61,857 bases of DNA, taken from the IMG/VR virus record IMGVR_UViG_3300047462_000177; one strand, 5' to 3'. A model generated the notes under the pieces. It was not told where the DNA came from. It searched no databases and was given only the letters and a program-made list of their open reading frames with translations. The position numbers were made by a program, and so were the translations under genes. Of this stretch, positions 5,368 to 58,629 are shown piece by piece (positions within the stretch are counted from its first letter, which is position 1; each line of letters opens with the position of its first letter). The stretch is from a virus.

Positions 5368-5377
5368 ACATTCTATG

Positions 5378-5407
5378 ATTATACTATAGGCATTCTAGGC
5401 TAATCAA
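5378..5407 (-). promoter_or_regulatory. sigma70-type promoter (TTGATT-N18-TATAAT)
   Basis: attata at 5378-5383 and aatcaa at 5402-5407. The upstream box ATAAAATTCCTC is shared with promoter 54955-54984. Confidence 0.6.
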
Positions 5408-5431
5408 GAGGAATTTTATAGTGCCTCTCGA

Positions 5432-5827
<396 letters not shown>

Positions 5828-6582: not shown

Positions 6583-6636
6583 TGGTCAAAATGAAGACCA
6601 GTCTTAGATTTCTTGTGGTCCAACACGCTGAGGTGA

Positions 6637-6661
6637 GGCAGACGCCTGCGCCGCGACGCGA
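6637..6661. repeat. GC-rich dispersed repeat family 1, copy B
   Basis: ggcagacgcctgcgccgcgacgcga is identical over 25 nt to 6890-6914. Confidence 0.85.
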
Positions 6662-6671
6662 ACATGGGTGG

Positions 6672-7427
6672 TTAGTTATTGTCCTCCTCTTCTGCTTTCA
6701 TGTCTTCTGGTGACATGTATTTGATGTAGGTCTCGCCAAAGGTTCCTTGACCAATGTCCAAGCAACCACCTGCAGCTAAGTCTGCGATCTCATGTGGATG
6801 GATTATGAGCACCTTTGTGGGTGTAGTCTTTTGTTCAGCCTGTCTTTTGGCAAGGATAGTTAAAAAACGGAGCTCTGGGGTGAATGTAGGGCAGACGCCT
6901 GCGCCGCGACGCGACAGGTCGACGCTACGGAGTTGAGTGCGAAGCAATTTAGCTGCATCACTGCCAATACCATCTTTTAGACCTATAGCATAGGCTTGAT
7001 TAACTAGATGCTGCAGCATTAACTGGATATCAAGTTCTGGTAAGGAGCAATTGGCTCCCCTCAGTTGCTGAGCGTAGACAGCTGCATGATCACGGACGTC
7101 GTCGACTTGAGGCGCCTCAGTGATTTTATAGTCCTCACGTTCAGCTACCTCTATGTAGAAGACTGAGTCGTCGTAGACTTGCTCACCATCATCGATCGCC
7201 TCCCAGATGTACTTGGGTTTGGACCCAAAGCCAAATGGCCACATAACCCTTGTTGGGTTCTGGATCTCGTACAGCTTGCAGATGTTATCAATACAATCCG
7301 CGATCTTTTGATGTGACTTGGCAGGCATTATCACAGGTACAGGGAAAGAGACCTCGATCTTGCTGATCTTCCTACGCTCCATTTTCCGTTCGCTGTCGTT
7401 GCTGTTGTCGTTCGAATTCGTGTTCAT
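6672..7427 (-). CDS. hypothetical protein (251 aa from the ATG at 7427)
   Basis: The track ORF extends to 7574, but the upstream gene stops at 7430-7432 and an ATG (MNTNSNDNS) follows 2 nt later. Repeat copy C lies in frame inside this gene. Confidence 0.6.
   Translation of the reverse strand: MNTNSNDNSNDSERKMERRKISKIEVSFPVPVIMPAKSHQKIADCIDNICKLYEIQNPTRVMWPFGFGSKPKYIWEAIDDGEQVYDDSVFYIEVAEREDYKITEAPQVDDVRDHAAVYAQQLRGANCSLPELDIQLMLQHLVNQAYAIGLKDGIGSDAAKLLRTQLRSVDLSRRGAGVCPTFTPELRFLTILAKRQAEQKTTPTKVLIIHPHEIADLAAGGCLDIGQGTFGETYIKYMSPEDMKAEEEDNN
6877..6914. repeat. GC-rich dispersed repeat family 1, copy C (inside coding sequence)
   Basis: 6877-6903 is identical to 58479-58505, and 6890-6914 is identical to 6637-6661. 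Confidence 0.85.
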
Positions 7428-11415: not shown

Positions 11416-11464
11416 GTGTCCAAATGATGTGCGCTCAAGATTCTCTTTTTTGAGATTCGCCCCG

Positions 11465-11498
11465 TTGACGGGGGCACGAGTAAGCGCGAAGCGCTTGG
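11465..11498. repeat. GC-rich dispersed repeat family 2, copy F
   Basis: ttgacgggggcacgagtaagcgcgaagcgcttgg is close to the reverse complement of 42842-42876. Confidence 0.8.
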
Positions 11499-22114: not shown

Positions 22115-22768
22115 ATGGCTATCCAGATGTTGGCTCCCGGACCTTACGTCTCGATCACTACACGTCAGGGCACTACCTACACCGCTGACGGCAACTCCAT
22201 GATCTACGCTACTATCCAGCAGTGGGACATCGCAGATCTCCTGAACGCCGGGTGTGACTTCGCTATGCAGGTCCCTGACTTCCAGTTTGACAGTGAGACT
22301 GCTCACCCTGCTTCGACAGCTTCTGACGTCGTCATGGCTGTCGGTACCTTGCCAGCAAATTTCTTCACCCGAGATGGCGTCGGCGTCGACCTGACGATGA
22401 TCGGTACCTTCGCGAACAACACCAATACCAAGACCGCGAAGATCATCGTCGGTCCTGCAACTGCCGTCATCGGCTCTACTGTGGGTACGGGTGGCACGAC
22501 TCTCGCAACCACCGGCGCCTACAGCACTACAGGCCAAGTCGGCTTCCAGTTGAACGCCCAGATCACCAAGATCGGTATCCTCGGCGCCAACACGCAGGTC
22601 GGCTTCGAGACAGCAGTCATCATCGGTGCCACGCACGGCGGTATGGGCGTCCCTCAGGCTCTAACACTAACGGAGACGTCGCCTATCCTCGTCGCGTTCA
22701 CGTTGAATTCGGCTACCACGGCGAGCGACACCACTCTCGACTACGCCAGCATCCAGCCTCTCGACTAA
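22115..22768 (+). CDS. hypothetical head-module protein
   Basis: 217-aa ORF between the portal and the protease. AGGAGA precedes the ATG. Confidence 0.55.
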   Translation: MAIQMLAPGPYVSITTRQGTTYTADGNSMIYATIQQWDIADLLNAGCDFAMQVPDFQFDSETAHPASTASDVVMAVGTLPANFFTRDGVGVDLTMIGTFANNTNTKTAKIIVGPATAVIGSTVGTGGTTLATTGAYSTTGQVGFQLNAQITKIGILGANTQVGFETAVIIGATHGGMGVPQALTLTETSPILVAFTLNSATTASDTTLDYASIQPLD

Positions 22769-24704: not shown

Positions 24705-26261
24705 ATGCCTGGATACGACCCGGTCGCTGGCTTGTCTCTTACCCAGCAGACCATGGACATGATGAAGGGATCCCTAGGGGCTCCTACTGACCGCTTCGGG
24801 AATCAGCTCCAGAAGGGGGTGACTCTCTCCACGGGACTTACGTGGTACGACCTTGCTGCTCCGGCGAAGATGCTCTACCCGATCATCACGCCGCTGCGCA
24901 ATGCCATTCCCAGGAACCTGAAGAAGACTCCTGGTAATGCTGCTCACTGGAAGCAGATCATGACCCTCGTGGGGTCGGGCTACGATGCCATGGGCTGGGT
25001 GCCAGAAGGTCAGCGCTCTGGGACGATGAGCTACCAGTCGAATGACATGGCTGCGACCTATATCACACTGGGTGAGGAAGACTACCTGACATTCGAAGCC
25101 GAGGCCGCTGCGACGGGCCTCGAGGATGAGAATGCTATGGTGACATTCCGACTCCTACAGAAGATGATGCGCAAAGAGGAGCTCGGTATCCTCGGCGGCA
25201 ATGCATCCATGTCGCTCTCTCCTCCAAGTGCTCCAACGCTGAGCGTTGCGGGTAGCACGGGGACTCTGCCTTCCGCAACCTACAGCGTCTACTGTGTCGC
25301 ACTGACTCTCGAGGGGTGGAAGAACTCGTCGCTCACCTACGGTGTGGCTACGACCAAGGTCATCACAGGCGCCGACGGCAAGAACTTCACGCTCTACGGT
25401 GGCAGCAGCAATAAGAGTTCCAATACCACCCAAGCTGTCACCCTCGGGCAGATCCTCACGGCTACTGTCCCGCCGATCCAGGGCGCCATGGCATATGCCT
25501 GGTTCGTAGGCACCGTCGGCAATGAGACGCTGCAAGCGATCACCAACATCTCTGCAGCCAACTTCTCACTGCCTCTGACTGCCGGCACACAAGCTGCAAC
25601 TGCTATCACTGGCAACTGCAGCCGCAATCCCGGACTGGCTTTCGACGGGCTACTGACCTGCGCTCTGAACCCAAATGCTCCGTTCTTCGTCAATGCGACA
25701 GCGGCTCAGGCCTATGTCAGCATCTTGCCGAATAATGGCTCGACGGGTACTGGCCTCACTGCAAGCGGCCGCGGCTCGGTCAACGAGATCGACCAGATGC
25801 TGCAGACCATGTGGAACACGTACAACATCGGCCCCGATGTCATCTACGTGAACTCCCAAGAGCAGAAGAACATCACCAACAAGGTGCTCAGCAACACCGC
25901 TGGTCCCTTGCTCCGGTATGACACTCCTGCCTCGGGCGGCCAGGCCTACGGCATCGTCGCTGGCGGTGTGGTGGAGTACTACTACAACCCGTTCACGATG
26001 GGTGGCGGTGTGAAGATCCCCATCTTGCTGCACCCAGATGTCCCACCTGGCACGATCATCGCCTGGTGCTCCAAACTTCCGGCCTGGTACCAATCCAACG
26101 AAGTCCCTAACGTCGCCGAGATGCTTCTCCGCCGCGACTACTATCGGGTGGATTGGCCTCTGCGTACTCGCCAGAAGGAGTATGGTGTGTACTGCGAAGA
26201 GGTACTAGCCGTGTACGCCACTTTTGCCATGGGGGTGATTACGAACATCGCGAATATCTAA
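24705..26261 (+). CDS. major capsid protein (large, 518 aa)
   Basis: Position after the protease-scaffold, strong GAGGAA SD, and a strong hairpin downstream. The fold was not verifiable by eye. Confidence 0.65.
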   Translation: MPGYDPVAGLSLTQQTMDMMKGSLGAPTDRFGNQLQKGVTLSTGLTWYDLAAPAKMLYPIITPLRNAIPRNLKKTPGNAAHWKQIMTLVGSGYDAMGWVPEGQRSGTMSYQSNDMAATYITLGEEDYLTFEAEAAATGLEDENAMVTFRLLQKMMRKEELGILGGNASMSLSPPSAPTLSVAGSTGTLPSATYSVYCVALTLEGWKNSSLTYGVATTKVITGADGKNFTLYGGSSNKSSNTTQAVTLGQILTATVPPIQGAMAYAWFVGTVGNETLQAITNISAANFSLPLTAGTQAATAITGNCSRNPGLAFDGLLTCALNPNAPFFVNATAAQAYVSILPNNGSTGTGLTASGRGSVNEIDQMLQTMWNTYNIGPDVIYVNSQEQKNITNKVLSNTAGPLLRYDTPASGGQAYGIVAGGVVEYYYNPFTMGGGVKIPILLHPDVPPGTIIAWCSKLPAWYQSNEVPNVAEMLLRRDYYRVDWPLRTRQKEYGVYCEEVLAVYATFAMGVITNIANI

Positions 26262-28548: not shown

Positions 28549-29286
28549 ATGGAATTTGCATTTGGTTCGGGTGTTCTCTGGGCCAGCCGCTCGGATATCG
28601 CCAACGCTACGCCTGTCCGCTTCGGAGCGCTGCAGGACGTCACTATTGACTTCGATGGTGAGATGAAGGAGCTCTTCGGGCAGTACAAGTACCCGATCGA
28701 CGTCGCTGCTGGCAAAGCCAAGATCACGGGCAAGGCCAAGGCTGCCCGTATCTCCACGGTACAGTTCAACAGCATCTTCTTCGGCCAGACGACCACTGCA
28801 GGGCAGAAGCTCGTCAGCTACGATGAGACGGGGACTGTAGCTTCCGGCGGTACTATCGCAGTTGCCAACGCAGGTACCAATTTCTTCGCAGACCTCGGCG
28901 CCAGAAACGGCCTGACGGGCGAACCTCTGGTTCTGTCTGGAGGAACCGTAGGGACCACAGGCACCTATGTCGTGAACAACACTGGTACCTACAACTTCGG
29001 TACTGGTGCTGCCGGCAACACGATGATCCTCGACTACATCTACTCTACCGTTGCCACAGGCACCACCATGTTGATGACCAACCAGCCTATGGGCTACGCC
29101 CCGAGGTTCGGTTGCACCTTCACCAACCAGTATGAAGGGAATACCGTCACGCTTCGGTTGTTTGCCTGCCTATGCTCCAAGCTCAACATGGCTGGGAAGA
29201 TCGACGACTACATCATCCCAGAGTTCGACTTCAGTGCCTACGCCAACGCTGCCAACCAAGTCTTTGAGTTCAGCTCGACTACCTAA
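28549..29286 (+). CDS. major tail tube protein
   Basis: 245 aa, immediately upstream of the chaperone/TMP genes, and followed by GC-rich hairpins. Confidence 0.65.
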   Translation: MEFAFGSGVLWASRSDIANATPVRFGALQDVTIDFDGEMKELFGQYKYPIDVAAGKAKITGKAKAARISTVQFNSIFFGQTTTAGQKLVSYDETGTVASGGTIAVANAGTNFFADLGARNGLTGEPLVLSGGTVGTTGTYVVNNTGTYNFGTGAAGNTMILDYIYSTVATGTTMLMTNQPMGYAPRFGCTFTNQYEGNTVTLRLFACLCSKLNMAGKIDDYIIPEFDFSAYANAANQVFEFSSTT

Positions 29287-29364: not shown

Positions 29365-29395
29365 GGCGCTTCGCGCTCTTTCGTACCCCCGTCAA
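29365..29395. repeat. GC-rich dispersed repeat family 2, copy H
   Basis: ggcgcttcgcgct..acccccgtcaa, preceded by an 8-bp stem ctcgcgcg (29310-29317) / cgcgcgag (29345-29352). Confidence 0.75.
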
Positions 29396-29452
29396 AGGCG
29401 CGTCTCCAGGCACGGTAGGATGGGGTAGGATAACAGATAAGGTACACACCAA

Positions 29453-30154: not shown

Positions 30155-33100
30155 ATGTCTGGCTCGAATATCAATGCCAATATCAATGTTGATGCCGCCC
30201 AATTTCAGGCTGCGATGGCTGCTGCTGCTGCTTCTACACAGCAGTTCGCCCAGCAAGCTCAGGCTGCATTTCAACAAGCCTCTGCTTCTATGGCACAGTC
30301 AAGTGCTGCTATGGCTGCAGCCGCTGCCCAGGCTGCTGCAGCTGCAGCTACCTTGCAGAATCGCATTACGCAGGTAGGTACCTCTGCTGGGTATACTGCT
30401 CGCAAGCTATCTGCTATGCTTGATGAAGCGATTGCAGGCCGCTGGCGTCAGTTTGATGGTACATTAGCCAGCGTCGTGACAACATTTGGCAGACTGAACA
30501 TTGCTATGACAGCAGCTGCAGCTGGTGTAGCAGGTTTGGCAATAGGTGTTGGCTACCTAGCGGTGCAATGGATCAAAGCAGAGAATGCTGCCAAAGAGGC
30601 AGCAGGTGCGATGACCATTGCTGGTCAGAATACCGGTGCTAGTATTGACGGGCTCTCAAAGGAGATCGCCAGCAATGCTGCTCACTGGCATGAGTGGCAA
30701 TCGACATCAGGTGATGTCACCAAGACAATGGCGGGCTTGTCAGGAGATGCAGCTCAGTTTAGACAGCAACTCACGCAGTTAGCTTATAGCCAGGCAGCTC
30801 TGACCCAAGGTGATGTTGCTAAGTATGCTCAGGATCTGTTTGAGGCCTTCAACAAAGGCGGCTCAGGAGCTGTAGGCTTTGCTGATAAGATCCATCTGCT
30901 TGACCCTGCATTGCGTTCGCAGGTTGAAGCTATGGTGGGGGCGAAACAAGAATCCCAGGCTATGGGAGTTATCATTGATCAGCTGAATAAGCGATACGGT
31001 GCTTCAGGCGAAGCTGTCAATAAGCTCAATATCGGCATAGCTGAGAAGATGCGTCTCAGCGTGATGGCTGCTGACGGTGATATGGATGCAGCTGCCAAAC
31101 TCAATGAATGGGATGAGGCTCACAAGAAAGCCTATGAAGAGGCTACCACTAATCAGATTCCTCCTATTGCTCCTCAAGCCAGAGATGACGCTGCAGCGGT
31201 AGCACAGCTAGATATGGCTACGCAGAAGAGGACGCAAGCAACCTTGGAGCTTGCTGCCGCTCAGAGAGCACAGAAGGCAGCACAAGATTCAGGTGATGTG
31301 GCTGCGCAGCAATCAGCTATCAACGCTATCATTGAAGCCCAGAAGAAGATCAGCGAGACACATACGGCGTCTGAAGAGCAGCAGCACCAAGCTACTCTGC
31401 GGTCGCTTGATGAGCAAATTGCAGCAGAGCATGATCATGCTAACCGTGTAGCAGCACTCAAACAACAGGTAGCAGCCGAAGATGCCAAGTATTACGGAGA
31501 TTCTAGCAACCAAGCTAGGACATCTGCTACTCAGGCTACTGCTGCTCAACGCGAAGCAGCTGATGCGCAGCTTAGGTTGAATCTGGCTAAGCTTGATGGG
31601 CAGATCAACCAAGAGAAGAATAGCCTCGGTGCTACGTTGGCTATCTATGACCAGAAGCTTGCCTTGTTGCGGGCTGCCGACAAAGCAGATACCCTGGAAT
31701 ATCAGGAAGTCCTAAATCAGAAAGCCAATGCAGCCAGAGGTGCAGGCAATCAGGATGTCCGTTCTGAGGAAGAGGCTCTTCGTGCCAAGCAGGAATTATA
31801 CGGTAAAGACTATGCAGCCAAGTTGGCCATTGAGGACCAGATCCTCTCGATAGTCAAAGCACATTACGGAGCTCAGAGCACCCAATACCAGACTGAGATG
31901 ATCCGCCGCTCAAGGCTGATGGAAGAAGAAAAGGAGCAGGCAGCCTCTGTTGAGCAACAGAAGATTGCTTCTGCCTCTCGCACCAACCAGATCATGTACA
32001 ATGATCTGAAGAAGAACCTTGACCAGGAAGTAGCGCAATACCAGATTACGAAGAAGGAAGAGCTGGCTCAGCTTGATGCTTTCCAGCAATCGCACGACCA
32101 GAAATTGGTCGCGATGCTAGATGCCGAAATAAAGAGCCTGACACAGGGTACGGTAGCTTGGCAAGAAGCAACTAACAAACGTGAAGAGCTTCTGCAGAGG
32201 ATGAAGGAGCAGCATGATGCTATAGCTGATGAGATTGCTCAAGCTGATCGTAAGGCTGCTGAGAAATCAACACAGGAGTGGGAGCAGGCTTTCGATAAGA
32301 TTAGTGAAGCCTCAGAATCTGCTATCTCTGGTATGATCTCTGGTCAGGATTCATTTCAGAAAGCTGCTCTGAAAGTAGGACAGGCAGTAGTCCAGGATGC
32401 GGTAAAGACAGGTCTACAGATGTTAGGCTCTTGGGTAGCTACTGAGCTAGCTAAGACTGCTTCTACCACCACTCAGAATGCTGTTCGTGAGGCTCAAGAT
32501 AAAAGCGGCCAAACAGGTCTTGTGACATTGTTGTTACGTTCATTAGGAATTCATACAGCTACGGAGACAGAGAAGACTGCGGCAACTACAACGGGTACAG
32601 GTGCTAGAGAAGGAATCCAGACAGCAGCAGATTCTAAAGACAATCTATCATTTATAGCTCGGGCAGCCAAGTGGGTTGCATCTGAGCTAGGTATGACAAG
32701 CGCAACAGCAACCGGAACTACTACGCGTGTAGGAGTTCAAACAGGTGCGGATACAGAAGCTGCTGGCACAGCTGTGACATCCAATGTCACACAAGCACTT
32801 TCTTATGCTGCTGTTGGTGGAGCTGCTGCAGGTGCTAGTACTGCAGCAATCCCTGTTGTAGGTCCTGAAATGGCTCCAGAAGCAGCTGCTACTGTCTACG
32901 GTGATCTAGCTAGCTATGCTGGTATGGCTAGCATGGCTACCGGTACGATGAATGTCCCTAAAGATATGTTGGCTAATATCCATGCTGGTGAGATGGTGGT
33001 TCCAAGAACATTTGCTGACGGTATCCGTAGTCAAATGAGTGGAGGAGGCAGAGGAGGTGATACTACACATATGAACTCTTCCATTAACTACTCACCTAGC

Positions 33101-33214
33101 TTCCACGGAGGCAGTAGCGATATCAAAGCTGTGGCACGCAATAACTTCAAGGAATTCAAGTCCTACATGAATAATGTTACCCGCAACGGTAATCTCATGG
33201 TTCCGGGGAGGTAA
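30155..33214 (+). CDS. tape measure protein
   Basis: 1019 aa, Ala/Gln-rich helical sequence with TM-like segments, directly downstream of the chaperone. Confidence 0.85.
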   Translation: MSGSNINANINVDAAQFQAAMAAAAASTQQFAQQAQAAFQQASASMAQSSAAMAAAAAQAAAAAATLQNRITQVGTSAGYTARKLSAMLDEAIAGRWRQFDGTLASVVTTFGRLNIAMTAAAAGVAGLAIGVGYLAVQWIKAENAAKEAAGAMTIAGQNTGASIDGLSKEIASNAAHWHEWQSTSGDVTKTMAGLSGDAAQFRQQLTQLAYSQAALTQGDVAKYAQDLFEAFNKGGSGAVGFADKIHLLDPALRSQVEAMVGAKQESQAMGVIIDQLNKRYGASGEAVNKLNIGIAEKMRLSVMAADGDMDAAAKLNEWDEAHKKAYEEATTNQIPPIAPQARDDAAAVAQLDMATQKRTQATLELAAAQRAQKAAQDSGDVAAQQSAINAIIEAQKKISETHTASEEQQHQATLRSLDEQIAAEHDHANRVAALKQQVAAEDAKYYGDSSNQARTSATQATAAQREAADAQLRLNLAKLDGQINQEKNSLGATLAIYDQKLALLRAADKADTLEYQEVLNQKANAARGAGNQDVRSEEEALRAKQELYGKDYAAKLAIEDQILSIVKAHYGAQSTQYQTEMIRRSRLMEEEKEQAASVEQQKIASASRTNQIMYNDLKKNLDQEVAQYQITKKEELAQLDAFQQSHDQKLVAMLDAEIKSLTQGTVAWQEATNKREELLQRMKEQHDAIADEIAQADRKAAEKSTQEWEQAFDKISEASESAISGMISGQDSFQKAALKVGQAVVQDAVKTGLQMLGSWVATELAKTASTTTQNAVREAQDKSGQTGLVTLLLRSLGIHTATETEKTAATTTGTGAREGIQTAADSKDNLSFIARAAKWVASELGMTSATATGTTTRVGVQTGADTEAAGTAVTSNVTQALSYAAVGGAAAGASTAAIPVVGPEMAPEAAATVYGDLASYAGMASMATGTMNVPKDMLANIHAGEMVVPRTFADGIRSQMSGGGRGGDTTHMNSSINYSPSFHGGSSDIKAVARNNFKEFKSYMNNVTRNGNLMVPGR

Positions 33215-33222
33215 CAGATACT

Positions 33223-34239
33223 ATGGCTTGGCTTTGGGCAGAGGGCTTCGACAATTTATACCAGCCAGCAGACTTAACTAATAATACTGGCTTTGCGCAG
33301 TGGTCTACTGTCAATTTCTGCACTCTGCCTACTGGTAGAGGTGGAATAGGCAAAGCATTGTCTTTTGGCAACGCTATAGTTTCATTTGGAGTTAATCAGA
33401 CAGAGTGCTATCTGGGATTTGCCATCAAAGCAGCAGCTAATCCTACGTTCAACTTTATAGATGCCACTACTAACACCTATCAGGCTACCCTAACATTGGA
33501 CACTATCTACGGCATTACAAAGCTATATGGAGGTAATAGCTCAGCGTTACTTTATGCTACAGGCAATAATTCAACCAACCTAGGTACTTATGGCTTTCTT
33601 GAGATCCACTTAAAAACCCATGCAACTGCAGGCATCTTTGAGGTACAGTACAACGGGAATACAATAGCATCTATTTCGGGTGTCAAGACCGCATATTCAG
33701 CTAACAATTATTTCAATGCTGTGTTCTTTGGAGCAGGTAATGGAAGTGCTGTTGTTGATGATATGCGTCTTTTTGATACCACTACGGGAGCAGGAACATA
33801 TCCATGCAACTCTTGGGGCGGAGATCTTCGCGTTGCATCGATATATCCCTCTAGCAACAGTTCTGTTACTTGGACACCTAGCGGCAGTAATAACTGGTCG
33901 GATATCAACAATCAGGGTACACAGTCTCTAGGGACAACCTACAACACCACGTCTACTGTAGGCAATGAAGATCTGTTCAATCTCCAGACCTTAAGTAGTG
34001 TCATCTCGGAGATCATAGGAGTACAGATCAAAGGAGCTTATCAGGAGACAGATGCGGCAGCCCATACGTTAGAACAATTGTTGCATATCTCTGGAACTGA
34101 CTATCCAGGTGCAGCTAAGACACTATCTCAAGGCTGGCAATACTTCACAGACATCTACCCAATCAATCCTGCTACAGGTGTGAGCTGGGTCCTAACTGAC
34201 GTAAACTCCTTGATAGCCGGCTATAAGGCTCTGTCGTGA
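33223..34239 (+). CDS. tail-tip associated protein (assigned by position)
   Basis: 338-aa ORF between the TMP and the DUF2460-like gene. Confidence 0.45.
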   Translation: MAWLWAEGFDNLYQPADLTNNTGFAQWSTVNFCTLPTGRGGIGKALSFGNAIVSFGVNQTECYLGFAIKAAANPTFNFIDATTNTYQATLTLDTIYGITKLYGGNSSALLYATGNNSTNLGTYGFLEIHLKTHATAGIFEVQYNGNTIASISGVKTAYSANNYFNAVFFGAGNGSAVVDDMRLFDTTTGAGTYPCNSWGGDLRVASIYPSSNSSVTWTPSGSNNWSDINNQGTQSLGTTYNTTSTVGNEDLFNLQTLSSVISEIIGVQIKGAYQETDAAAHTLEQLLHISGTDYPGAAKTLSQGWQYFTDIYPINPATGVSWVLTDVNSLIAGYKALS

Positions 34240-34242
34240 TAC

Positions 34243-35085
34243 ATGACAGCTCAAGTTAGCCAGTTATCAGTACAATGCTTAGTAAAGATTTCAGGTACAA
34301 CTGCTCAAGCCTCACAGCTGATTGTTCAGGCTCTTGCTAAGAATGGTGGTACTACTGCTCAGGTAACACAGCTAATACTTCAGGCTTTGGTTAAGAATGG
34401 CGGGACTACAGCTCAAGTTGCACAGCTTCTACTCAACATCCTTGTCTGGAATGGTAGTCCGGTGACATATCCTGTTTTTCCTGTTACCTTAGGTTTAGGA
34501 TACAGTGTCATTAAGAGACCTGTATTCTACAATTCTCAGGCCAAGAGTGGTAGCGGTTGGACTACTCGTGTTGCATACAGTGCAACTCCTACATGGGAAT
34601 GGGATCTTACATATGAACGGCAAGAGGACTACAGTTCCTCTAGCGAGCTCAAGACTGTTCTTGGTTTTTACCTTGCTATGCAGGGTAGCTTCAAACCTTT
34701 CCTGTATCAAGATCAAGATGACAATGCCGTAGTAGGCCAAGCCCTAGGCACATCGGACGGCACGACAACCTCTTGGACCTTTGTAAGGACCTATGGCTAC
34801 AGCCAGACTGAGACAGAGAATGTAGGCTACGTTAATACTGGCAGTACTTTGAATGTGTATGTAGGTGGTACTCTACAGAGTCCATCAACCTACAGTGTTG
34901 TCACCACTACACCTATGTCTCAACTATTGACCTTCAACACAGCTCCAGCCACGGGATATGCTATCACAGCAGACTTTTCCTATTACTTTTATGTCCATTT
35001 CAAGGAAGACACCGAAGAGTGGGAGAAGTTCCTATACCAGCTTTGGTCCCTGAAGAAGATCACCATTGAAAGCCTAAAGGGCTAA
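34243..35085 (+). CDS. DUF2460 / GTA g12-like distal tail protein with a repeated N-terminal extension
   Basis: FPVTLGLGYSVIKRPVFYNSQAKSGSG..WEWDLTYE is the core. The N-terminus has four repeats of about 17-18 aa (GGTTAQVxQLxxQALxKN), encoded at 34246-34458. Confidence 0.6.
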   Translation: MTAQVSQLSVQCLVKISGTTAQASQLIVQALAKNGGTTAQVTQLILQALVKNGGTTAQVAQLLLNILVWNGSPVTYPVFPVTLGLGYSVIKRPVFYNSQAKSGSGWTTRVAYSATPTWEWDLTYERQEDYSSSSELKTVLGFYLAMQGSFKPFLYQDQDDNAVVGQALGTSDGTTTSWTFVRTYGYSQTETENVGYVNTGSTLNVYVGGTLQSPSTYSVVTTTPMSQLLTFNTAPATGYAITADFSYYFYVHFKEDTEEWEKFLYQLWSLKKITIESLKG

Positions 35086-35090
35086 ATATC

Positions 35091-35981
35091 ATGCGCCCAG
35101 CGTCAACTGCTCTTGTTTCATTCCTGCTTAGTAAGCAGCCCTGGTGGTCAGCTGACCTATTCACCTTCAGCCTGCCTAATGGTACAACTCTCCGCTACAC
35201 CAGCGCTGATGCGAACATCACCTACAGCGGCCATACTTGGTACTGTGCATCATCTAGCATCGTAGCACTGACTCGTAAGAGCTGGTCTGTCAAGAATACG
35301 ATGGACGTCCCTGAGATGGAGATCGAGCTTAACTCCTCAGGAACGGATTACACAGGAGGGGTCAATATCAAGCTCCTGTTACACAATGGCTTCTTTGATG
35401 GTGCCTGGCTTGAGATGGATAGGGCATTCATGCCCGCTTCTGGTACTTACGGGACTACCTCGCTGGGGACAGTCCCGATCTTTGCTGGGCCTGTAGGTCA
35501 GATCCAGATCACCTCCATAGGGGCTAAGATTACTGTTCGCGGTGCTAATGTCAAGCACCAGCAGTATATGCCTCGCAATCGATTCCTGACTTCCTGCATT
35601 CATGCTCTGTATGATACCGGATGTACTGTCTCAAAGTCAAGCTACACCTTTACAGGTACTGTTAGTACTGCCAATAAGATCCAGCTGAATTGGGTTTCTG
35701 ACCCTACAAGCGGCAACTACAATTACCTGGCTTATGGTGCTGTGACCATGACCTCAGGTGCTGCAACTGGTATCACACGCACCATAAGCCAAGTAGGTGC
35801 CTCTGGAATTGCTTATCCCTACCCTATGTATGAGGTTCCTGCAGCGGGCGACACCTTCAGCGTAGTGTATGGCTGCAACAAGACACTATCTAATGGTCCC
35901 AATGCTAACTGCGGGACCTTCAGCAACTCACAGCACTTCAGAGCCTTTCCTTATGTACCCCCTGCAGAGACGGGGGTATGA
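35091..35981 (+). CDS. DUF2163 + BR0599-like tail protein (GTA g13-like)
   Basis: The N-terminus has ADLFTFSLPNGTTLRYTSAD and the C-terminus has CNKTLSNGPNANCGTFSNSQHFRAFPYVP. Confidence 0.6.
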   Translation: MRPASTALVSFLLSKQPWWSADLFTFSLPNGTTLRYTSADANITYSGHTWYCASSSIVALTRKSWSVKNTMDVPEMEIELNSSGTDYTGGVNIKLLLHNGFFDGAWLEMDRAFMPASGTYGTTSLGTVPIFAGPVGQIQITSIGAKITVRGANVKHQQYMPRNRFLTSCIHALYDTGCTVSKSSYTFTGTVSTANKIQLNWVSDPTSGNYNYLAYGAVTMTSGAATGITRTISQVGASGIAYPYPMYEVPAAGDTFSVVYGCNKTLSNGPNANCGTFSNSQHFRAFPYVPPAETGV

Positions 35982-36586
35982 TGTCCCAAACAGAGACAGA
36001 TGAATCGCCGATCCCAATCACCTTGGTACCTACCCAAAAAGCCTTGGCTCTGATGCAGGGTGAAGCTGAAGCTGAAGCTGAAGCACGTGCGTTGGTCGTA
36101 GCTGAAGCCTTGACTTGGGATCAAACGCCTTATAGGCAGCAGGGATATGAGAAAGGGCCCAACGGTGCTGTTGATTGCTCTATGCTTCTTGTGGCTGCTT
36201 ACGTTGGCAGTGGTCTGGTGGAGGAATTCGATCCGAGACCGTACCCGCCTACTTGGTACCTACATCATTCAGAAGAGCGGTACCTTGCCTGGATGCAAAC
36301 CTTGGCAATCGAGGTTCAAACGGCTCAACCAGGAGACATCGCCCTCTTCAAGTTTGGGCGCTGCTTCTCCCATAGCGGGATCTTCACGCATAAACCAAAT
36401 CAGATTGTCCATGCGGCAGCTATAACAGGAAAGTGTACCTTAGGCGATCTCTCTGATCCTGAACTAAGGTATTTCGATAGGCGAGGCACTCAGTTAAGAC
36501 CTATGAAGATCTTCGACGTGTGGGCACACATCAAACAGATTGCCAACGGCAATAGCAATAGCATCAGCAACCAAGGTAATGTGTAA
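35978..36586 (+). CDS. NlpC/P60 cell-wall peptidase (GTA g14-like)
   Basis: Nucleophile block AVDCSMLLVAAY and His block FSHSGIF. The in-frame (gaagct)x4 repeat gives EAEAEAEA. Confidence 0.65.
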   Translation: MMSQTETDESPIPITLVPTQKALALMQGEAEAEAEARALVVAEALTWDQTPYRQQGYEKGPNGAVDCSMLLVAAYVGSGLVEEFDPRPYPPTWYLHHSEERYLAWMQTLAIEVQTAQPGDIALFKFGRCFSHSGIFTHKPNQIVHAAAITGKCTLGDLSDPELRYFDRRGTQLRPMKIFDVWAHIKQIANGNSNSISNQGNV

Positions 36587-39500
36587 TGGGTCTGTTTGGC
36601 AATGGTGGATCTGCTGCCCAAAAGATCACGCGATACACATCACTGGACATCCAGACATCTGCCTTAGGTGTATGCATCCCCTTGCTATGGGGCCGCAACC
36701 GAATTGGCTGCAACCTGATTTGGACTGGCAACTTCATATCGAAGCCCGTCTCTGGTAAAGGTGGCGGTAAGGGTGGCGGAGGTAAAGGTGGCGGCACATA
36801 TGACTACTGGTGTGCCTTAATTGCTGCCCTATGTGAGGGTACGATCCAGGATGTCCTACAATGCTGGCAAGACCAGCAATCGGAAAGCCTTAGCTACTGG
36901 AATCTAGGTCTAGTAACGGGCACTCAGAGCCAGGCCATACCTAGCTGGTTCACGTCAAACTTCCCCAGCCAGAGCCTGAGCTACGCAGGCACAGCGTATG
37001 TCTGGTCGCAGAAGTACTCACTAGGTGAGAGTGCTACGTTACCCAACCTTACTTTTGAGGTAGATGGCTATCTCTCTGGTACCTGCAGCATAGCAGGCAT
37101 CCCAGATGCTAACCCAGCAGACATTATCAATGACTACCTGACTAATTCTCTCTATGGCCTTGATCCAGGCGCTACTTACATTGACAGCACCTCTCTGAGC
37201 ACTTACAGGACCTACTGCCTAGCTCAAGCTCTCTTGCTGTCACCGTACCTCCGCACACAGGAACAGGCTACCCAAACGTTACAGAGATGGGCGCAGCTCA
37301 CCAATTCTTGGATCTTCTGGAATGGTGTGGAGATGAAATTTGTCCCTTTGGGGGACGCGACAATCACCAGCAACGGGGTGACCTATACTCCTAACCTAAC
37401 GCCCATCTACGCTCTGGATGAGAGTGACTTCATCCCCGATTCCAAAGATGGTCCCCTTGTAACAGTCACGCGTATTGACCCTGCTGATGGCTACAATCGC
37501 GTAGAGATCGACAACCGCAACCGGAACGATCTTTACAATACCGACCCCACATACTGGGAAGACTCTACCTCTGTCTCAACCTTTGGCCAGCTGCAGTCGC
37601 AGACTGTCACAGCAGACGAGGTGTGTGATCCTAATGTAGCTGCTATCATGGCCTCCTTGATAGGGCAGCGAAGCGTCTACATCAGGAACACCTATGAGTT
37701 CACGCTTGACTATTCCTACATCCTTCTTGAGCCAGGTGACATTGTTACCTTAACAGATTCCAATATCGGCATCATTACAACTCCTGTCAGGATTACTGAT
37801 GTTAGCGAGGATGACAAAGGCTATCTGAAATTCGGAGCTGAAGAATGCCCTGGAAGTGTCGGCATATCTAGTGCCCATCCAAAGCAATCAGTTACGAATA
37901 ATATCGTCAATACCCAAGTAGATCCTGGAGTAGTGAACCCTCCACTGATTATTGAGCCTCCTGTAAGCTTAACAGGTGGTGTACCTGAACTGTGGATTGG
38001 TGCTTCAGGAGGAGCTAATTGGGGCGGAGCACAGATCTGGGTATCGGCTGATGGTACCAACTATGCTTCTGTAGGACAGGTCACAAGCCCAATTATTCAA
38101 GGCACGCTATCAGCTTCTCTTGCTTTGCATGTCGACCCTGACAACTCCAACACGATATCCGTCAACCTAACGGAGAGTGATACTACCCTCCCAACCAGCT
38201 TCACCAGCGCTGACGCCAATGCCTATCGCACAGCATCTTTGATCGACAACGAGATCATATCCTTTGGCACCTCTACATCTACAGGTGCATTCACATACAA
38301 CCTTACAGGTTTACGTCGAGGGGTCTACAATACTACGCCTGCATCACATTCTACAGGAGCACAGTTCTACTGGATTAGCTCTGCTGATACGTTTACCTAT
38401 TCTCTGCCTCAGGCTTACGTAGGCACAACTCTCTACTTCAAGTTCCTGAGCTTCAACCAATTCGGCAATGCCCTTGAACAGCTGTCCGGCGTTAGCGCTT
38501 ACACTTATACGCCTACAGGTGTAGGTTATACCATAGCTCCTCCTACGTCGGCCTCTACTGCTGTCACTCGGACGACTCAGGCTGACGGTACTACTCTGCT
38601 GAACATGACTGTATCATGGACAGCCTCAACAGGTCCGAATCTGGCAGGCTACAATGTTAGCTGGTCAACAAATGGAGGCTCTACATATAGCACTCCTATC
38701 CAAGTAGGTTCAGCAGCTACATCTTACACATTGACACCAGCTGTAGCTTCAACCAATTACATCTTCCGTGTACAGGCTTATAGTCAGAACGGCCTTGCAC
38801 TATCTACCTACGCCACCGCCGCATCTGTATCCAGCGGGACTCTAGTTGCAAGTGTACCATCAGCACCAAGTGGCGTTACAGCTACAGCTGTGGGCACCCA
38901 AGCGCAGATTGCCTGGACATCAGGACCTCAGACCAATCTCTTCTACACTATCAGCCGAGCATCAGGTACTGGTGCTTCCTTCTCAAGTGCCTCCATCGTA
39001 GGCTATGGTGCTCAAGGATCCACCACGTTCCTCGACACTTCTACAAGTGCTTCTACTGCTTACACCTACTTTGTTCAAGCTTCCAATGCTGCGGGTACCT
39101 CAAGTGCCTCATCAGGGGTAAACTGCACTACAGGGACTGTAGCCACCTCGATAGTTGTTGAGGTTAACAACACCGTCGATGCTGTAGGCACCATCTCTTT
39201 CAACGCTGGGCTCCTTGGTACAGTGAGCTCGGGGACCTTGGAGCTGTCTGTCCCTACACAGCTAACACTGGAATCTCAAGGGACTACAGAGACCGCAAGC
39301 TTCCTCAACTTCGGGTCAAATCTCACTGCCACCTTGGCTAGTGGTACCCTGACTATTCAAGGTGCTCCACAGACCTACTTCGAGTCATCTGGCACCGTTG
39401 TCTCTGCTAACACACTCAACGTCTCATCGGGGCTCACAGCCTCAGTAGCCTCTGGTACTCTCACTCTGACCTCGGGCGGTGGAGGAGGTGGTGCGGGGAC

Positions 39501-40749
39501 ACTCGAACTATACCAGGGAGGCAGCTACACCCCATTCGGCACGCTCGTGGCGACCAACGGTGTGACGGCTGCCGTGTCGTCGGGGACCGCCACTCTCCAG
39601 GGACTATCCTACGCCAACCAGGGAACTTTGATCGGAGGCAGCACGGTCGCGGGCTCGACGTGGAACCCTTCCTACGTCGGGGGGTCGTCTACGCTCAGCG
39701 GAGGCAACCTGACGTTCAACGGCTCCAACACGGGCTCCTACAACTGGACAATGTGCATCGCCCAGTCCACGAACACTACAGGGGTCACAAAGTTCTATTG
39801 GGAAATCACCACAGGCTCCCAAACCGGCTCCAATACCATGATCGGCCTCGCCACCTACGGCGCGGCGCTGGGCGCCTGGATGGGCAGCAGCGACAGCAGC
39901 GGTATAGGATTCGAGGGCCAGGGGAGTGTGTGGTATGCCGGCAATGGGTCCTACGAGACTGGCATCACCTATGGCGCCAGCACCACCATCGGCATCGCCT
40001 GGGACGTCAATGCAGGCAAACTGTGGTTCAACATCGGGGGCTCCTGGGTCAGCGGCAACCCCGCGACAGGGACTGGGGGCAGTACGATGCCTGTGGTGGG
40101 AACCCCCCACCCTGCTGTGGCTGTCCTCGGGTCTGGGTCGAGTGCGACGGCCAACTTCGGCAGCTCGACCTTCGCCTACAGCGTCCCGACAGGCTTCACG
40201 GCCTACGGAGCAGCCAGCATCGCAGCAGTGAACCTATCGGAGATCAACTTCTCCACCAACCTGAGCGCTGTGCTCAGTGGCAGTACGCTCACCGTCACGG
40301 CTCCCCAGCAGCTGACGCTGGAGTCGGCTGGAACAGTCGTATCGGCTAGCACACTCAATGCGGGCACCGGAATCGCGATGAACTCGGGCGGCACGATCAC
40401 GACCGTTGGTCAACAACCCTTCGACCTTCTCGTGTTCAATCCGGGAACCCTCGCGTCCTCTCAGAAACTCGTGCGCGCCGTCATGGCTCGCCAAGTGGTG
40501 TTCCCCACGAACTTCTCAGGCTCCTACGTCGGCGCGGGCACGGCGGCAACCGCCTCCAACACGTTGACGATCTCGAACGGTGTCACTCAGGTCGGAAGCA
40601 TCGTCATCCCCGCATCTTCCTCGACAGGAACGATCTCCGTCGCGAGCGCCACCACGATCACGGCAGGCGGCACGCTTAACATCGTCAATCAGGCCACTGC
40701 GGACGTGACGCTTGCCGATCTCAGCTTGACCCTCACCGGAGTTCGTTAA
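36586..40749 (+). CDS. host-specificity / central tail fibre protein (J-like, GTA g15-like) with FN3 repeats and a C-terminal SPRY-like domain
   Basis: The N-terminus has SALGVCIPLLWGRNRIGCNLIW. Two FN3-like units are encoded at about 38520-39120. An SPRY-like block (FYWEI..IGIAWDVNAGKLWF..ANFGSSTFAYSVPTGF) is encoded at about 39700-40210. Confidence 0.8.
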   Translation: MGLFGNGGSAAQKITRYTSLDIQTSALGVCIPLLWGRNRIGCNLIWTGNFISKPVSGKGGGKGGGGKGGGTYDYWCALIAALCEGTIQDVLQCWQDQQSESLSYWNLGLVTGTQSQAIPSWFTSNFPSQSLSYAGTAYVWSQKYSLGESATLPNLTFEVDGYLSGTCSIAGIPDANPADIINDYLTNSLYGLDPGATYIDSTSLSTYRTYCLAQALLLSPYLRTQEQATQTLQRWAQLTNSWIFWNGVEMKFVPLGDATITSNGVTYTPNLTPIYALDESDFIPDSKDGPLVTVTRIDPADGYNRVEIDNRNRNDLYNTDPTYWEDSTSVSTFGQLQSQTVTADEVCDPNVAAIMASLIGQRSVYIRNTYEFTLDYSYILLEPGDIVTLTDSNIGIITTPVRITDVSEDDKGYLKFGAEECPGSVGISSAHPKQSVTNNIVNTQVDPGVVNPPLIIEPPVSLTGGVPELWIGASGGANWGGAQIWVSADGTNYASVGQVTSPIIQGTLSASLALHVDPDNSNTISVNLTESDTTLPTSFTSADANAYRTASLIDNEIISFGTSTSTGAFTYNLTGLRRGVYNTTPASHSTGAQFYWISSADTFTYSLPQAYVGTTLYFKFLSFNQFGNALEQLSGVSAYTYTPTGVGYTIAPPTSASTAVTRTTQADGTTLLNMTVSWTASTGPNLAGYNVSWSTNGGSTYSTPIQVGSAATSYTLTPAVASTNYIFRVQAYSQNGLALSTYATAASVSSGTLVASVPSAPSGVTATAVGTQAQIAWTSGPQTNLFYTISRASGTGASFSSASIVGYGAQGSTTFLDTSTSASTAYTYFVQASNAAGTSSASSGVNCTTGTVATSIVVEVNNTVDAVGTISFNAGLLGTVSSGTLELSVPTQLTLESQGTTETASFLNFGSNLTATLASGTLTIQGAPQTYFESSGTVVSANTLNVSSGLTASVASGTLTLTSGGGGGGAGTLELYQGGSYTPFGTLVATNGVTAAVSSGTATLQGLSYANQGTLIGGSTVAGSTWNPSYVGGSSTLSGGNLTFNGSNTGSYNWTMCIAQSTNTTGVTKFYWEITTGSQTGSNTMIGLATYGAALGAWMGSSDSSGIGFEGQGSVWYAGNGSYETGITYGASTTIGIAWDVNAGKLWFNIGGSWVSGNPATGTGGSTMPVVGTPHPAVAVLGSGSSATANFGSSTFAYSVPTGFTAYGAASIAAVNLSEINFSTNLSAVLSGSTLTVTAPQQLTLESAGTVVSASTLNAGTGIAMNSGGTITTVGQQPFDLLVFNPGTLASSQKLVRAVMARQVVFPTNFSGSYVGAGTAATASNTLTISNGVTQVGSIVIPASSSTGTISVASATTITAGGTLNIVNQATADVTLADLSLTLTGVR

Positions 40750-40830
40750 ATGACCGCGACCATTCAGGCCCTTGAGGGCTTCGACAACTGGCGTGCGCCG
40801 GGATAGCGTTCGCCACGGTGGCTAACCAGC
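39470..40830 (+). other. high-GC mosaic segment (C-terminal third of the tail fibre plus downstream remnant)
   Basis: An abrupt rise in G/C at third codon positions begins at the GGGGGG linker. The supplied track shows several long overlapping ORFs in other frames only within this stretch. Confidence 0.6.
40750..40806 (+). pseudogene. 18-codon remnant ORF (MTATIQALEGFDNWRAPG)
   Basis: It starts 1 nt after the fibre stop, is GC-rich, and shares the EGFDN motif with the N-terminus of 33223..34239. Confidence 0.25.
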
Positions 40831-40917
40831 CCGCGTGCTGGCGGCAGCTACAGTTCTATACGTGACACAGTGTGTTAGGACACTGTCAACTCGTCCTGGG
40901 CTATCTAATAAGGTGAG

Positions 40918-41769
40918 ATGAAAATGGAAGATGGTTCAAAGACACAAGGCGCTACATCTGATGAGATACGTGACTGGTTTGCTTCGATGATGGATGGACA
41001 TAACCCATCTTCCTCACTTGATCGACGCCTACAAACACAGCGTGAGGAATTCATTGTCCTGAAGAAGGATCAGGAAGATATTAAGGGGCAACTGAATGAT
41101 CTAGGTGCTGCTGTTCAAGCACTCATCGTGGAGTTCAAGGAGAGTCGCAAGGTCAATTACCCTATGCTAGTGCTCCTCTTCTCTCTGATTCCCTTTGCAG
41201 GAGGCGGTAGCCTATACTTCATCTCAGGGCAGATCGATAAGGCTGTAGCTCCTATCACAAGCAACATCTCACAGCTGCAGACTAACCAGACTGCTCACGA
41301 TAAGCAGATCACAGATATAAACATCAAGGACAATACCCAAGACAGGTTGATCTCCAACCAGGAGACCCAGCTAGCCTCTCTGATCGCAGAGCAGAAGACA
41401 TCAGCTGATACACTACAGCGGCTATCCGAAGCTACGTCACATTCAAGTGCTTCAGAAGCTGCTAGCCAAGCCGACCGTGTACAGATCAACATGCGTATTC
41501 AATCCTTGGAGCAGCAGGAAGCCAAAGTCGTGGCTGATCGAGCCTCAGCGCGAGCTGAAGTATCTGCTAGACTTGTGGAGATCGAACAGCAGTTCCATGC
41601 CATGTCGAATATCTCCAACATCCAGATGGCCAACCAGAATCGTATCAACTCCATGCTCTGGGAGAAGACACATCCTGGTGAGCGCTACCCTGAACGTGAT
41701 TTCTTCCCGAGTACCATCTACCAAACAAGCCCTGCTCCCTTAGGAGCATCAGGCAGGCAAGGGAGCTAG
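40918..41769 (+). CDS. membrane-anchored coiled-coil protein preceding the endolysin
   Basis: One TM segment (YPMLVLLFSLIPFAGGGSLYFISG) followed by a long Gln-rich coiled coil. Confidence 0.55.
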   Translation: MKMEDGSKTQGATSDEIRDWFASMMDGHNPSSSLDRRLQTQREEFIVLKKDQEDIKGQLNDLGAAVQALIVEFKESRKVNYPMLVLLFSLIPFAGGGSLYFISGQIDKAVAPITSNISQLQTNQTAHDKQITDINIKDNTQDRLISNQETQLASLIAEQKTSADTLQRLSEATSHSSASEAASQADRVQINMRIQSLEQQEAKVVADRASARAEVSARLVEIEQQFHAMSNISNIQMANQNRINSMLWEKTHPGERYPERDFFPSTIYQTSPAPLGASGRQGS

Positions 41770-41771
41770 TC

Positions 41772-42524
41772 ATGGCTATTGATATCACCCCAGCTTTGGT
41801 TGCTTCATGCCCACACATGTCCTCATACAACATCAACGTGTGGTCTACTGCCTTCCGTGGCCCCTTAGAGCGGTACAAGATCACCTCTGTGCATCAACTA
41901 GCTGCCTTCATAGGGCAGGTAGTTGTTGAGTCAGGCGGTTTCACCGAGCTAGTGGAGAACATGAACTACAGCGCTCAGGGTCTCCGCAATACCTGGCCTC
42001 AGCGCTTTCCATCATTAGCTTTGGCAATGCAGTATGCTAGGCAGCCTGAGAAGATAGGCAACTTTGTTTATGCCAACAGAATGGGTAACGGTCCTCCAGA
42101 ATCAGGTGACGGCTATCTATTCAGAGGCCGTGGAGCATTACAGACTACTGGTCGAGAAGCCTACACCAAGCTAGCCAACGCCTACGGCCGCACTCCAGCT
42201 GACATGGCCAGCTGGATGGAAACGCCAAGCGGCGCAGCTGAGGCAGGGTGTTGGGATTGGATTAACCTGGATTGTGGTGCCTTAGCAGATGCTTGGGCTC
42301 TGACAAAGCTCTCTATAAGGATCAACGGAGGGACCATAGGCCTTGATGACCGTATTGCAATGTGCAACATTGCCCTAAAGGCATTAGGAGCTTCTGTTCC
42401 CTCTAATGCTGTACCTGAAAAGATTCCAGTTGCAGTTGTAGGCGACCAAACATCTACGTCATCTGATTCACTAAATCAGATGCAACTAAGTCTGCTAGAC
42501 ACCACCCAACCCAACGGAGGCTAA
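41772..42524 (+). CDS. endolysin, glycoside hydrolase family 19 (chitinase-like)
   Basis: AAFIGQVVVESGGF..YLFRGRGALQTTGREAYT is the GH19 phage lysozyme signature. Confidence 0.8.
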   Translation: MAIDITPALVASCPHMSSYNINVWSTAFRGPLERYKITSVHQLAAFIGQVVVESGGFTELVENMNYSAQGLRNTWPQRFPSLALAMQYARQPEKIGNFVYANRMGNGPPESGDGYLFRGRGALQTTGREAYTKLANAYGRTPADMASWMETPSGAAEAGCWDWINLDCGALADAWALTKLSIRINGGTIGLDDRIAMCNIALKALGASVPSNAVPEKIPVAVVGDQTSTSSDSLNQMQLSLLDTTQPNGG

Positions 42525-54931: not shown

Positions 54932-54954
54932 AGGGTGGCTCTCACTATCTATAG

Positions 54955-54984
54955 ATTATACTATAGGTATTAGAGGTCAATCAA
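54955..54984 (-). promoter_or_regulatory. sigma70-type promoter (TTGATT-N18-TATAAT)
   Basis: attata at 54955-54960 and aatcaa at 54979-54984. A 20-bp AT-rich palindrome acctaaaaatatttttaggt lies at 55001-55020, flanked by GGTCACC direct repeats. Confidence 0.6.
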
Positions 54985-55036
54985 GAGGAATTTTATGGTC
55001 ACCTAAAAATATTTTTAGGTCACCATTACTTCACCG

Positions 55037-58469: not shown

Positions 58470-58629
58470 TCCCGCATCGGGGTGAATGTAGGGCAGACGC
58501 CTGCGATGCACCGCGAGACTTGTGGTAGCCATAGTAGGTACCTACTCCAAAGCCCCAGGCAAAGAATATGAGGAAGAGAGTTGTCTGTGCCCAGAACTTA
58601 GGCGTGTTGATGTCAGCGAAGATGCTCAT
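58441..58629 (-). CDS. small membrane protein whose C-terminal tail is encoded by repeat copy D
   Basis: TM segment TTLFLIFFAWGFGVGTYYGY. Confidence 0.4.
   Translation of the reverse strand: MSIFADINTPKFWAQTTLFLIFFAWGFGVGTYYGYHKSRGASQASALHSPRCGNEHEDYGCD
58479..58518. repeat. GC-rich dispersed repeat family 1, copy D
   Basis: 58492-58518 is identical to 1646-1672, and 58479-58505 is identical to 6877-6903. Confidence 0.85.

Follow-up and report, generated by a model that had tools for sequence, protein, structure and literature searches.

Probable acquisition of a fibre head carrying a SPRY/B30.2 domain and a jelly-roll tip by the tail-tip protein of an uncultured siphovirus

Why does the base composition of a single phage gene change abruptly along its length, and what does the deviant part encode? 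This question is raised by the tail-tip/host-specificity gene of IMG/VR virus record IMGVR_UViG_3300047462_000177, a stretch of 61,857 nucleotides (nt) referred to here as the window (coordinates of the gene and its parts are given in Table 1). A first-pass annotation of the same DNA had described the C-terminal third of the encoded protein as a recent import containing a SPRY-like domain. We consider it likely, with a probability of about 0.8, that the C-terminal head was acquired from another phage or prophage and forms part of a fibre fused to the tail-tip protein. The gene had previously been extended to position 40917, where the intergenic spacer behind it ends; the stop codon lies at 40749.

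In 300-nt windows, GC content rises from approximately 0.50 to 0.60-0.64 across positions ~39350 to ~40850. In 60-codon windows, the GC content of third codon positions (GC3) is 0.35-0.60 up to about residue 960 and 0.70-0.85 beyond it; first and second positions (GC1, GC2) are nearly flat. The sharp third-position rise that had been described near the GGGGGG linker is thus real, and neither the GC nor the GC3 profile is flat across the gene. By maximum likelihood, GC3 changes at codon 975 (nt 39511, plateau 39420-39550), from 0.49 before to 0.78 after. The log-likelihood ratio of this step is 52.4, whereas 5000 codon permutations never exceeded 12.6 (p<0.0002), and the ratio is at most 10.1 in every other long gene of the window and in the tail genes of relatives. 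A two-change-point fit on nucleotides delimits a high-GC island, which has the highest GC of any 1430-nt segment in the 61.9-kb contig (0.628, versus at most 0.588 elsewhere).

The borders of this segment ignore those of the gene, because it starts in mid-gene and closes 100 nt after the stop codon: GC is 0.663 over the ~100 nt from 40750 to 40850 and then 0.463 at 40851-40917. Since the excess continues into non-coding DNA, it is a property of the DNA segment and not of the protein or its expression. At 4-fold degenerate sites, third-base usage in the island (C.45, G.30) differs from that of the N-terminal part of the gene (C.27, G.13), and falls between that of the relatives L002 and L003. 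GC3 is even across the SPRY, shaft and tip regions described below. The homologous tip region of relatives is without such an excess over the rest of the gene (L002, 0.57 versus 0.69; L003, 0.78 versus 0.84; L004, 0.66 versus 0.63), so the domain itself does not account for the shift.

Could high GC3 instead have arisen by local selection, through a hidden overlapping gene, RNA structure or codon optimisation? Long open reading frames (ORFs) in other frames had been noticed in this stretch alone, and those of at least 80 residues in the tail-tip gene are indeed confined to the island (39604-40110 on the minus strand, 39660-40349 and 39926-40231 on the plus strand, and 40234-40494 on the minus strand); in addition, some highly expressed structural genes reach a GC3 of 0.72. 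Against this, none of the alternative-frame ORFs has a Pfam or PHROG match, and their lengths are as codon usage predicts. The observed stop-free run of 293 codons compares with 225+-54 codons in synonymous shuffles (p=0.12) and 105+-26 codons after recoding with N-terminal codon usage. Since shuffles reach a similar length, these ORFs follow from the high GC3 itself, and an overlapping gene is rejected. Expression level cannot vary inside one gene, and the reach of the GC excess into non-coding DNA and the lack of excess in the homologous domains of relatives also argue against local selection, which we regard as very unlikely in any of its forms.

The sequence is metagenomic and repeats flank the segment, as would be expected if two phages had been merged during assembly at shared shaft repeats. 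An independent assembly (L007, run ERR9963788) is, however, 100% identical over 34986-42070 (7085 nt), across both junctions, which excludes a chimeric assembly. Several contigs, some of them 50-200 kb long, carry the identical protein (7 index blocks), the reading frame is unbroken, and the resident genes downstream are in the family's usual order. An assembly artefact is accordingly rejected, its chance being negligible.

Within the segment, the Pfam score and the predicted structure identify residues 1025-1204 as a true SPRY/B30.2 domain. The Pfam family PF00622 matches residues 1069-1159 with 31.0 bits in the full protein and 32.9 bits in the isolated module, relative to a gathering score of 26.3, and weak phmmer matches include RyR2 SPRY2 and the TRIM67 B30.2 domain. 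A first AlphaFold2 (AF2) run on the whole 427-residue module gave low confidence in the linkers and the last SPRY strands; the SPRY region was rerun alone with a deeper alignment of 53 sequences, and is predicted to form 13 strands with a predicted local distance difference test score (pLDDT) of 86.9 and a predicted template modelling score of 0.85. When this predicted model was compared with the PDB using Foldseek, the top 50 matches were all SPRY/B30.2 domains, with E values down to 3e-12 and template modelling (TM) scores of 0.65-0.84. The root-mean-square deviation (rmsd) was 2.2-3.5 Å (2.2-2.4 Å for the best matches) over ~180 columns, and the matches include RanBP9/10, Ash2L, DDX1, SPRYD7, TRIM67, TRIM9 and SPSB2. 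The SPRY-like domain of the first-pass annotation is thereby upheld by Pfam, predicted structure and Foldseek, and models as a SPRY beta-sandwich.

The accompanying statement that SPRY domains are uncommon in prokaryotic viruses holds in part. None of the 119 closest listed relatives possesses one, but the general claim was overstated. The SPRY clade is large, with 4034 representative clusters at E<=1e-3, of which 686 reach E<=1e-10, and giant multi-SPRY proteins are frequent in it. It was confirmed at 40 reference-genome loci with GC contents of 0.27-0.70, found with a degenerate DNA pattern for TANFG..F.Y..P.GF, in Alphaproteobacteria, Paenibacillus, Clostridia, the candidate phyla radiation, Polyangiaceae and others. 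Phage examples in BFVD and GenBank include the tail fibre of Burkholderia phage AH2, Ralstonia phage RSL2 and uncultured Caudovirales proteins annotated 'B30.2/SPRY', and the homolog P0001 occupies a tail-fibre position on an SU10-like phage contig. Both SPRY and laminin-G lectin-fold domains have been reported on jumbo-phage tail fibres (PMC7824862). Because SPRY is so widespread in prokaryotic and phage proteins, the description 'unusual adhesin' was too strong. The best-scoring relatives of the module are giant tandem-SPRY proteins, P0126 (2233 residues, 11 matched stretches) and P0127 (1377 residues, 5 matched stretches, and laminin-G in addition).

A terminal tip domain, typical of the family, had been overlooked. 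It was modelled by AF2 at pLDDT >90 and aligns with the C-termini of many relatives through the terminal ...S.TLTGTR. A profile of the tip matches residues 478-581 of Milano gp124 (8fqc) with an E value of 5.8e-5 in hmmsearch. Foldseek places the predicted tip on the 7-7-1 tail fibre (9rkv; E 1.7e-5, rmsd 2.1 Å, 100 columns) and on the C-termini of BFVD tail fibres (rmsd 0.8-1.4 Å over ~97 residues), the BFVD matches being annotated tail fibres of Burkholderia, Ralstonia, Loktanella, Sphingomonas, Achromobacter and Caulobacter phages. According to the papers on the two Agrobacterium phages (PMC10811340, PMC12796354), the matching region is a jelly-roll beta-sandwich at the C-terminus of putative receptor-binding proteins, and the trimer forms a 'triple jelly roll'. 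Since the tip occupies the extreme C-terminus, the SPRY domain is an internal module and not necessarily the receptor-binding end.

Domain architecture was counted in the 119 closest listed relatives. Bare proteins that end right after the FN3 domains (<=900 residues) account for 51 of them. The tip was found in 45, at the terminus in 41 and internally in 4; 36 of the 41 consist of core plus tip, with a length of ~970 residues. The remaining heads, in 23 relatives, include discoidin, laminin-G, C1q, HINT and others. The window protein is a core plus shaft joined to a hinge-SPRY-shaft-tip head. The same two domains in reversed order, tip-like and then SPRY, are present in P0004 and at genome locus L015 (3075-3990), and the joint occurrence of tip and SPRY in these two indicates that the domains travel together in fibre proteins of unrelated contigs.

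The shaft consists of repeats of the type xQLTLESxGTxxSAxxLNxxSxLTAxxASGTLT. The first-pass annotation had reported motifs of this kind in both GC regimes, and copies are indeed present at residues 892-908 (QLTLESQGTTETASFLN) and 931-945 (YFESSGTVVSANTLN) in normal-GC DNA and at residues 1242-1258 (QLTLESAGTVVSASTLN, nt 40309-40359) in high-GC DNA. A further shaft repeat encoded by high-GC DNA, residues 970-1024, lies between hinge and SPRY, and comparable shaft repeats are found in the relatives P0030, P0087, P0032 and P0004. In the DNA, a 38-nt repeat (39382-39419 and 40321-40358) has 79% identity between copies that are 939 nt, or 313 codons, apart and in frame. A run of at least five glycines after residue 800 occurs in 10 of the 119 relatives, with either a different head or, directly, the tip behind it: P0053 has Gly6 and then discoidin, and P0030 has two hinges. 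P0004 also has a glycine hinge, Gly5. This recurrence of poly-Gly before variable heads marks it as a recurrent module boundary.

On the left, the boundary of the island falls at the hinge and the final shaft repeat of resident composition. The 79% identity over 38 nt between resident and imported shaft repeats makes a homologous crossover in the donor's equivalent repeat plausible. At the other end, the tail gene is followed by a high-GC mini-ORF with a TAAATG stop/start overlap. The same overlap precedes a discoidin-like gene in L008, so that the mini-ORF is plausibly a stub of the donor's downstream gene, and the right crossover would then lie near 40806-40850. A scan of the 3' flank for terminators and promoters found nothing.

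By analogy with the Rhodobacter capsulatus gene transfer agent (RcGTA; PMC7296036), the protein probably acts as a trimeric baseplate core. Three copies would form the tail tip of a ~62-kb siphovirus with a GTA-like tail-tip cassette, the first ~850 residues forming the baseplate core and the remainder a fused fibre with the order shaft repeats, Gly6 hinge, another shaft repeat, SPRY knob, shaft repeats and jelly-roll tip. Recombination with a related phage or prophage would have brought in the DNA that begins near the hinge (39420/39511) and ends ~100 nt after the stop codon (~40850), with the left crossover in the conserved shaft-repeat/hinge region and the right crossover within the donor's next gene, leaving the 18-codon stub. 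Such an import would have replaced the former head together with its own tip domain, and the swap probably re-targeted host recognition with the baseplate core untouched. The flexible Gly6 hinge may let the distal head swing. The SPRY knob and the jelly-roll tip are putative contacts with cell-surface receptors, most likely polysaccharide; SPRY is a concanavalin-like lectin fold, the structural class of the discoidin and laminin-G heads of relatives.

Instead of being an adhesin, the SPRY domain could serve as a platform on which another fibre, a chaperone or a virion protein docks. Its top structural matches are peptide-binding SPRYs (RanBP9/10, Ash2L, SPSB2, DDX1), and the C-terminus of the RcGTA megatron binds a separate tail fibre (PMC7296036). 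In the window, however, no separate fibre gene lies between the tail-tip gene and the endolysin, the tail-tip gene being followed by a membrane/coiled-coil protein and then the endolysin. The domain is distal to the flexible hinge, between shaft repeats and ahead of a typical fibre tip. Its homologs stand in tail-fibre positions (the P0001 locus, the AH2 tail fibre), and lectin-fold domains (discoidin, laminin-G, C1q) fill the equivalent place in relatives. We therefore consider a docking function unlikely.

It is a little more doubtful still that the hinge and SPRY block is a gain/loss cassette, excised or inserted by recombination between the in-frame shaft repeats. If it were, excision would produce a shorter core-shaft-tip fibre like that of the tip-bearing relatives, save for the retained shaft repeats, and populations could toggle an accessory adhesin, shifting host range without loss of the fibre. 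Such an accessory SPRY adhesin would possibly recognise a protein instead of a glycan receptor.

If the head was imported as a unit, as we favour, where did it come from? Related phages of suitable composition do exist, for example L003 (genome GC 0.644, GC3 0.83), and interpolating between the GC3 values of relatives would put the donor genome at a GC of roughly 0.60-0.63. That such a donor infects a higher-GC host, as had been proposed, is an inference. In a comparison of match lists, the best tip matches (P0139, P0160, P0235) differ from the closest N-terminal relatives. Protein searches for the donor lineage found neither donor nor near-donor, the best identity among about 15 billion proteins being 51%, for the tip alone. 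A megablast search with the gene found no match in 50,697 phage records, and tblastn of the module gave only 6 records, all below 40% identity. A word-indexed protein search, which is insensitive on this low-complexity query, returned 5 weak matches and missed the self-match. Scans for the module in IMG/VR, JGI metagenomes and GTDB genomes found none, and the 185,579 reference genomes held no matching prophage. Exhaustive phmmer against 1.84 billion representatives found many distant matches, none exceeding 51% identity for the tip or 49% for SPRY. The C-terminal ~30% of the protein is compositionally foreign, as first annotated, and the foreign DNA extends into non-coding sequence; with no donor found, 'recent' means only 'not yet ameliorated'.

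Recombination requires both DNAs in one cell, and the donor may therefore equally be a prophage of the phage's own higher-GC host. A resident prophage, GTA or tailocin of that host, in place of a co-infecting phage, is a possible source that we hold tentatively and at clearly less than an even chance. Alphaproteobacterial chromosomes carry prophages with relatives of the N-terminal core, SPRY homologs are present in many bacterial chromosomes with a GC of 0.57-0.70, and the GC enrichment of positions 16-26 kb suggests repeated exchange with a higher-GC pool. Set against these points, the reference genomes contained no matching prophage.

Several observations weigh against an imported receptor-binding head. 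The contig is a mosaic elsewhere: the block at 16-26 kb has a GC of 0.55-0.59, and head/early structural genes (22115-22768, 24705-26261, 28549-29286) have GC3 values up to 0.72, while the tail-tip genes at 30155-35085 have a GC3 of 0.41-0.43. None of the collections searched contained a donor or a near relative of the module, and the closest relative of the tip (51%) is encoded on L008, a contig with a GC of 0.43. The left breakpoint is resolved only to 39420-39511, and the downstream gene of L008 does not match the mini-ORF. The AF2 models are monomeric and were made from homolog alignments, and receptor binding by SPRY and tip is putative.

The N-terminal part of the protein places the gene in a large family. 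Pfam matches are to Phage-tail_3 (PF13550; residues 225-407, 76.4 bits, cut-off 23), Rcc01698_C (PF23666; residues 505-594, 44.2 bits, cut-off 27) and an fn3 domain (residues 673-737), and the PHROG match is phrog_1101, 'tail protein' (E 5e-81). This part is common to more than 1500 database proteins, the best with 59% identity, and homology stops at about residues 750-900. The nearest isolated phages are the ~62-kb Brevundimonas siphoviruses Strzyga and Polewnik (39% identity), whose counterparts bear the annotation 'tip attachment protein'; phages of Acinetobacter and Rhodobacter capsulatus come next. Within IMG/VR, the closest relative is L001 (68% DNA identity), which terminates at residue 832 and is therefore uninformative on the C-terminus. 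Other relatives of the core are found on alphaproteobacterial chromosomal contigs of 0.2-2.2 Mb (Nitrospirillum, Azospirillaceae, Stellaceae), i.e., as prophages.

A tape measure gene lies upstream of the tail-tip cassette, in which the order DUF2460, hub, NlpC/P60 and tail-tip gene is repeated in relatives L002-L004. The protein encoded directly before the endolysin has a single predicted membrane segment (YPMLVLLFSLIPFAGGGSLYFISG) and an extended coiled-coil-like stretch rich in Q, S and A; it has no Pfam or PHROG match and may be a lysis-associated candidate.

Table 1. Features of the tail-tip gene and its surroundings in the window.
Feature	Coordinates	Strand	Residues and description	Basis
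DUF2460 (distal tail protein)	34243-35085		upstream of tail-tip gene	
gp84_N + BR0599 hub	35091-35981		upstream of tail-tip gene	
NlpC/P60 peptidase	35978-36586		upstream of tail-tip gene	
Tail-tip/host-specificity gene	36586-40749	+	1387 residues; RcGTA g15 'megatron'/Phage-tail_3 type	
Conserved N-terminal core	36586-39132	+	residues 1-849; GC3 ~0.49	
Resident shaft repeats	39133-39474	+	residues 850-963; normal GC; motifs at 39259-39309 and 39376-39420	
High-GC island	39420-40850	.	GC 0.629 versus 0.502 outside; GC3 0.78	two-change-point fit on nucleotides
Gly6 hinge, left module junction	39475-39492	+	residues 964-969	
SPRY/B30.2 beta-sandwich (predicted)	39658-40197	+	residues 1025-1204, TWNPSY...FAYSVPTGF	Pfam, AF2, Foldseek
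Post-SPRY shaft repeats	40198-40410	+	residues 1205-1275; 44-48% identity to pre-hinge shaft	
Jelly-roll fibre tip	40411-40746	+	residues 1276-1387 (last 112 residues), QQPFD...LTLTGVR	
High-GC mini-ORF, putative donor-gene stub	40750-40806	+	MTATIQALEGFDNWRAPG and stop; 18 codons; TAAATG stop/start overlap after tail gene	
Intergenic DNA of resident composition	40851-40917	+	holds ribosome-binding site of next gene (40918-41769)	
Protein with membrane segment and coiled-coil-like region	40918-41769		283 residues; directly before endolysin	
Endolysin	41772-42524		phrog_181	

A close counterpart is RcGTA g15 (Rcc01698), which contains Phage-tail_3 and Rcc01698_C, follows DUF2460, gp84/BR0599 and NlpC/P60 genes, and belongs with the Phage-tail_3 tail-tip/host-specificity proteins (lambda gpJ-like class). 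In RcGTA, megatron and hub together make up the threefold core of the baseplate (PMC7296036). The megatron there holds a separate fibre through its C-terminal region, whereas here a complete fibre of shaft, hinge, SPRY and tip is fused to the protein and no separate fibre gene is present. The tip resembles that of 7-7-1 gp015 (9RKV) and Milano gp124 (8FQC), where a jelly-roll likewise stands at the extreme C-terminus of a putative receptor-binding protein. Those proteins are, however, myovirus side fibres or spikes with a beta-helical shaft, and tip identity to them is only ~20-25%; the window tip ends a siphovirus tail-tip protein, after short shaft repeats and SPRY. The SPRY domain, like those of AH2, RSL2 and the jumbo phages (PMC7824862), is a predicted two-sheet beta-sandwich within a tail-fibre protein. 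It has TM scores of 0.7-0.8 to RanBP10, Ash2L, DDX1, SPRYD7 and TRIM67 and, unlike the phage examples, is embedded between shaft repeats and is not terminal.

Exchange of C-terminal receptor-binding modules is classical in the fibres of P2, Mu, lambda and T-even phages. The window protein shares with these mosaic fibres a conserved N-terminal anchor, a variable head, a junction at a linker or repeat and a compositional anomaly in the exchanged part. It does not differ from them in principle, but the signal is unusually clean (GC3 0.49 to 0.78) and a putative stub of a donor gene is carried along. The protein has a real mosaic receptor-binding module, and is a clean example of a well-known process with no new mechanism. 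Both junctions are mapped to within ~100 nt, documenting module exchange in an uncultured siphovirus lineage, and SPRY joins discoidin, laminin-G and C1q among the lectin-fold heads of megatron-type tail-tip proteins. The natural splice points could guide the engineering of chimeric fibres.

Repeats also occur elsewhere in the window. A diversity-generating retroelement target was considered for the island and rejected, the island being unrepeated in the 61.9-kb contig; a reverse transcriptase was not searched for systematically. A family of 63-nt direct repeats (GATTATACTATAGG...AATCAAGAGGAATTTTAT...) with 63-78% identity is found at 1556-1618, 5377-5439 and 54954-55016. These are seemingly intergenic within blocks of minus-strand genes and may be phage promoters or regulatory sites. 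A GC-rich 38-nt repeat (GGGGTGAATGTAGGGCAGACGCCTGCGCCGCGACGCGA) is present in three copies with 76-89% identity at 6624-6661, 6877-6914 and 58479-58516, two of them 253 nt apart. Finally, a 37-nt inverted pair at 11458-11494 and 29366-29402, 84% complementary and 17.9 kb apart, roughly brackets the structural module.

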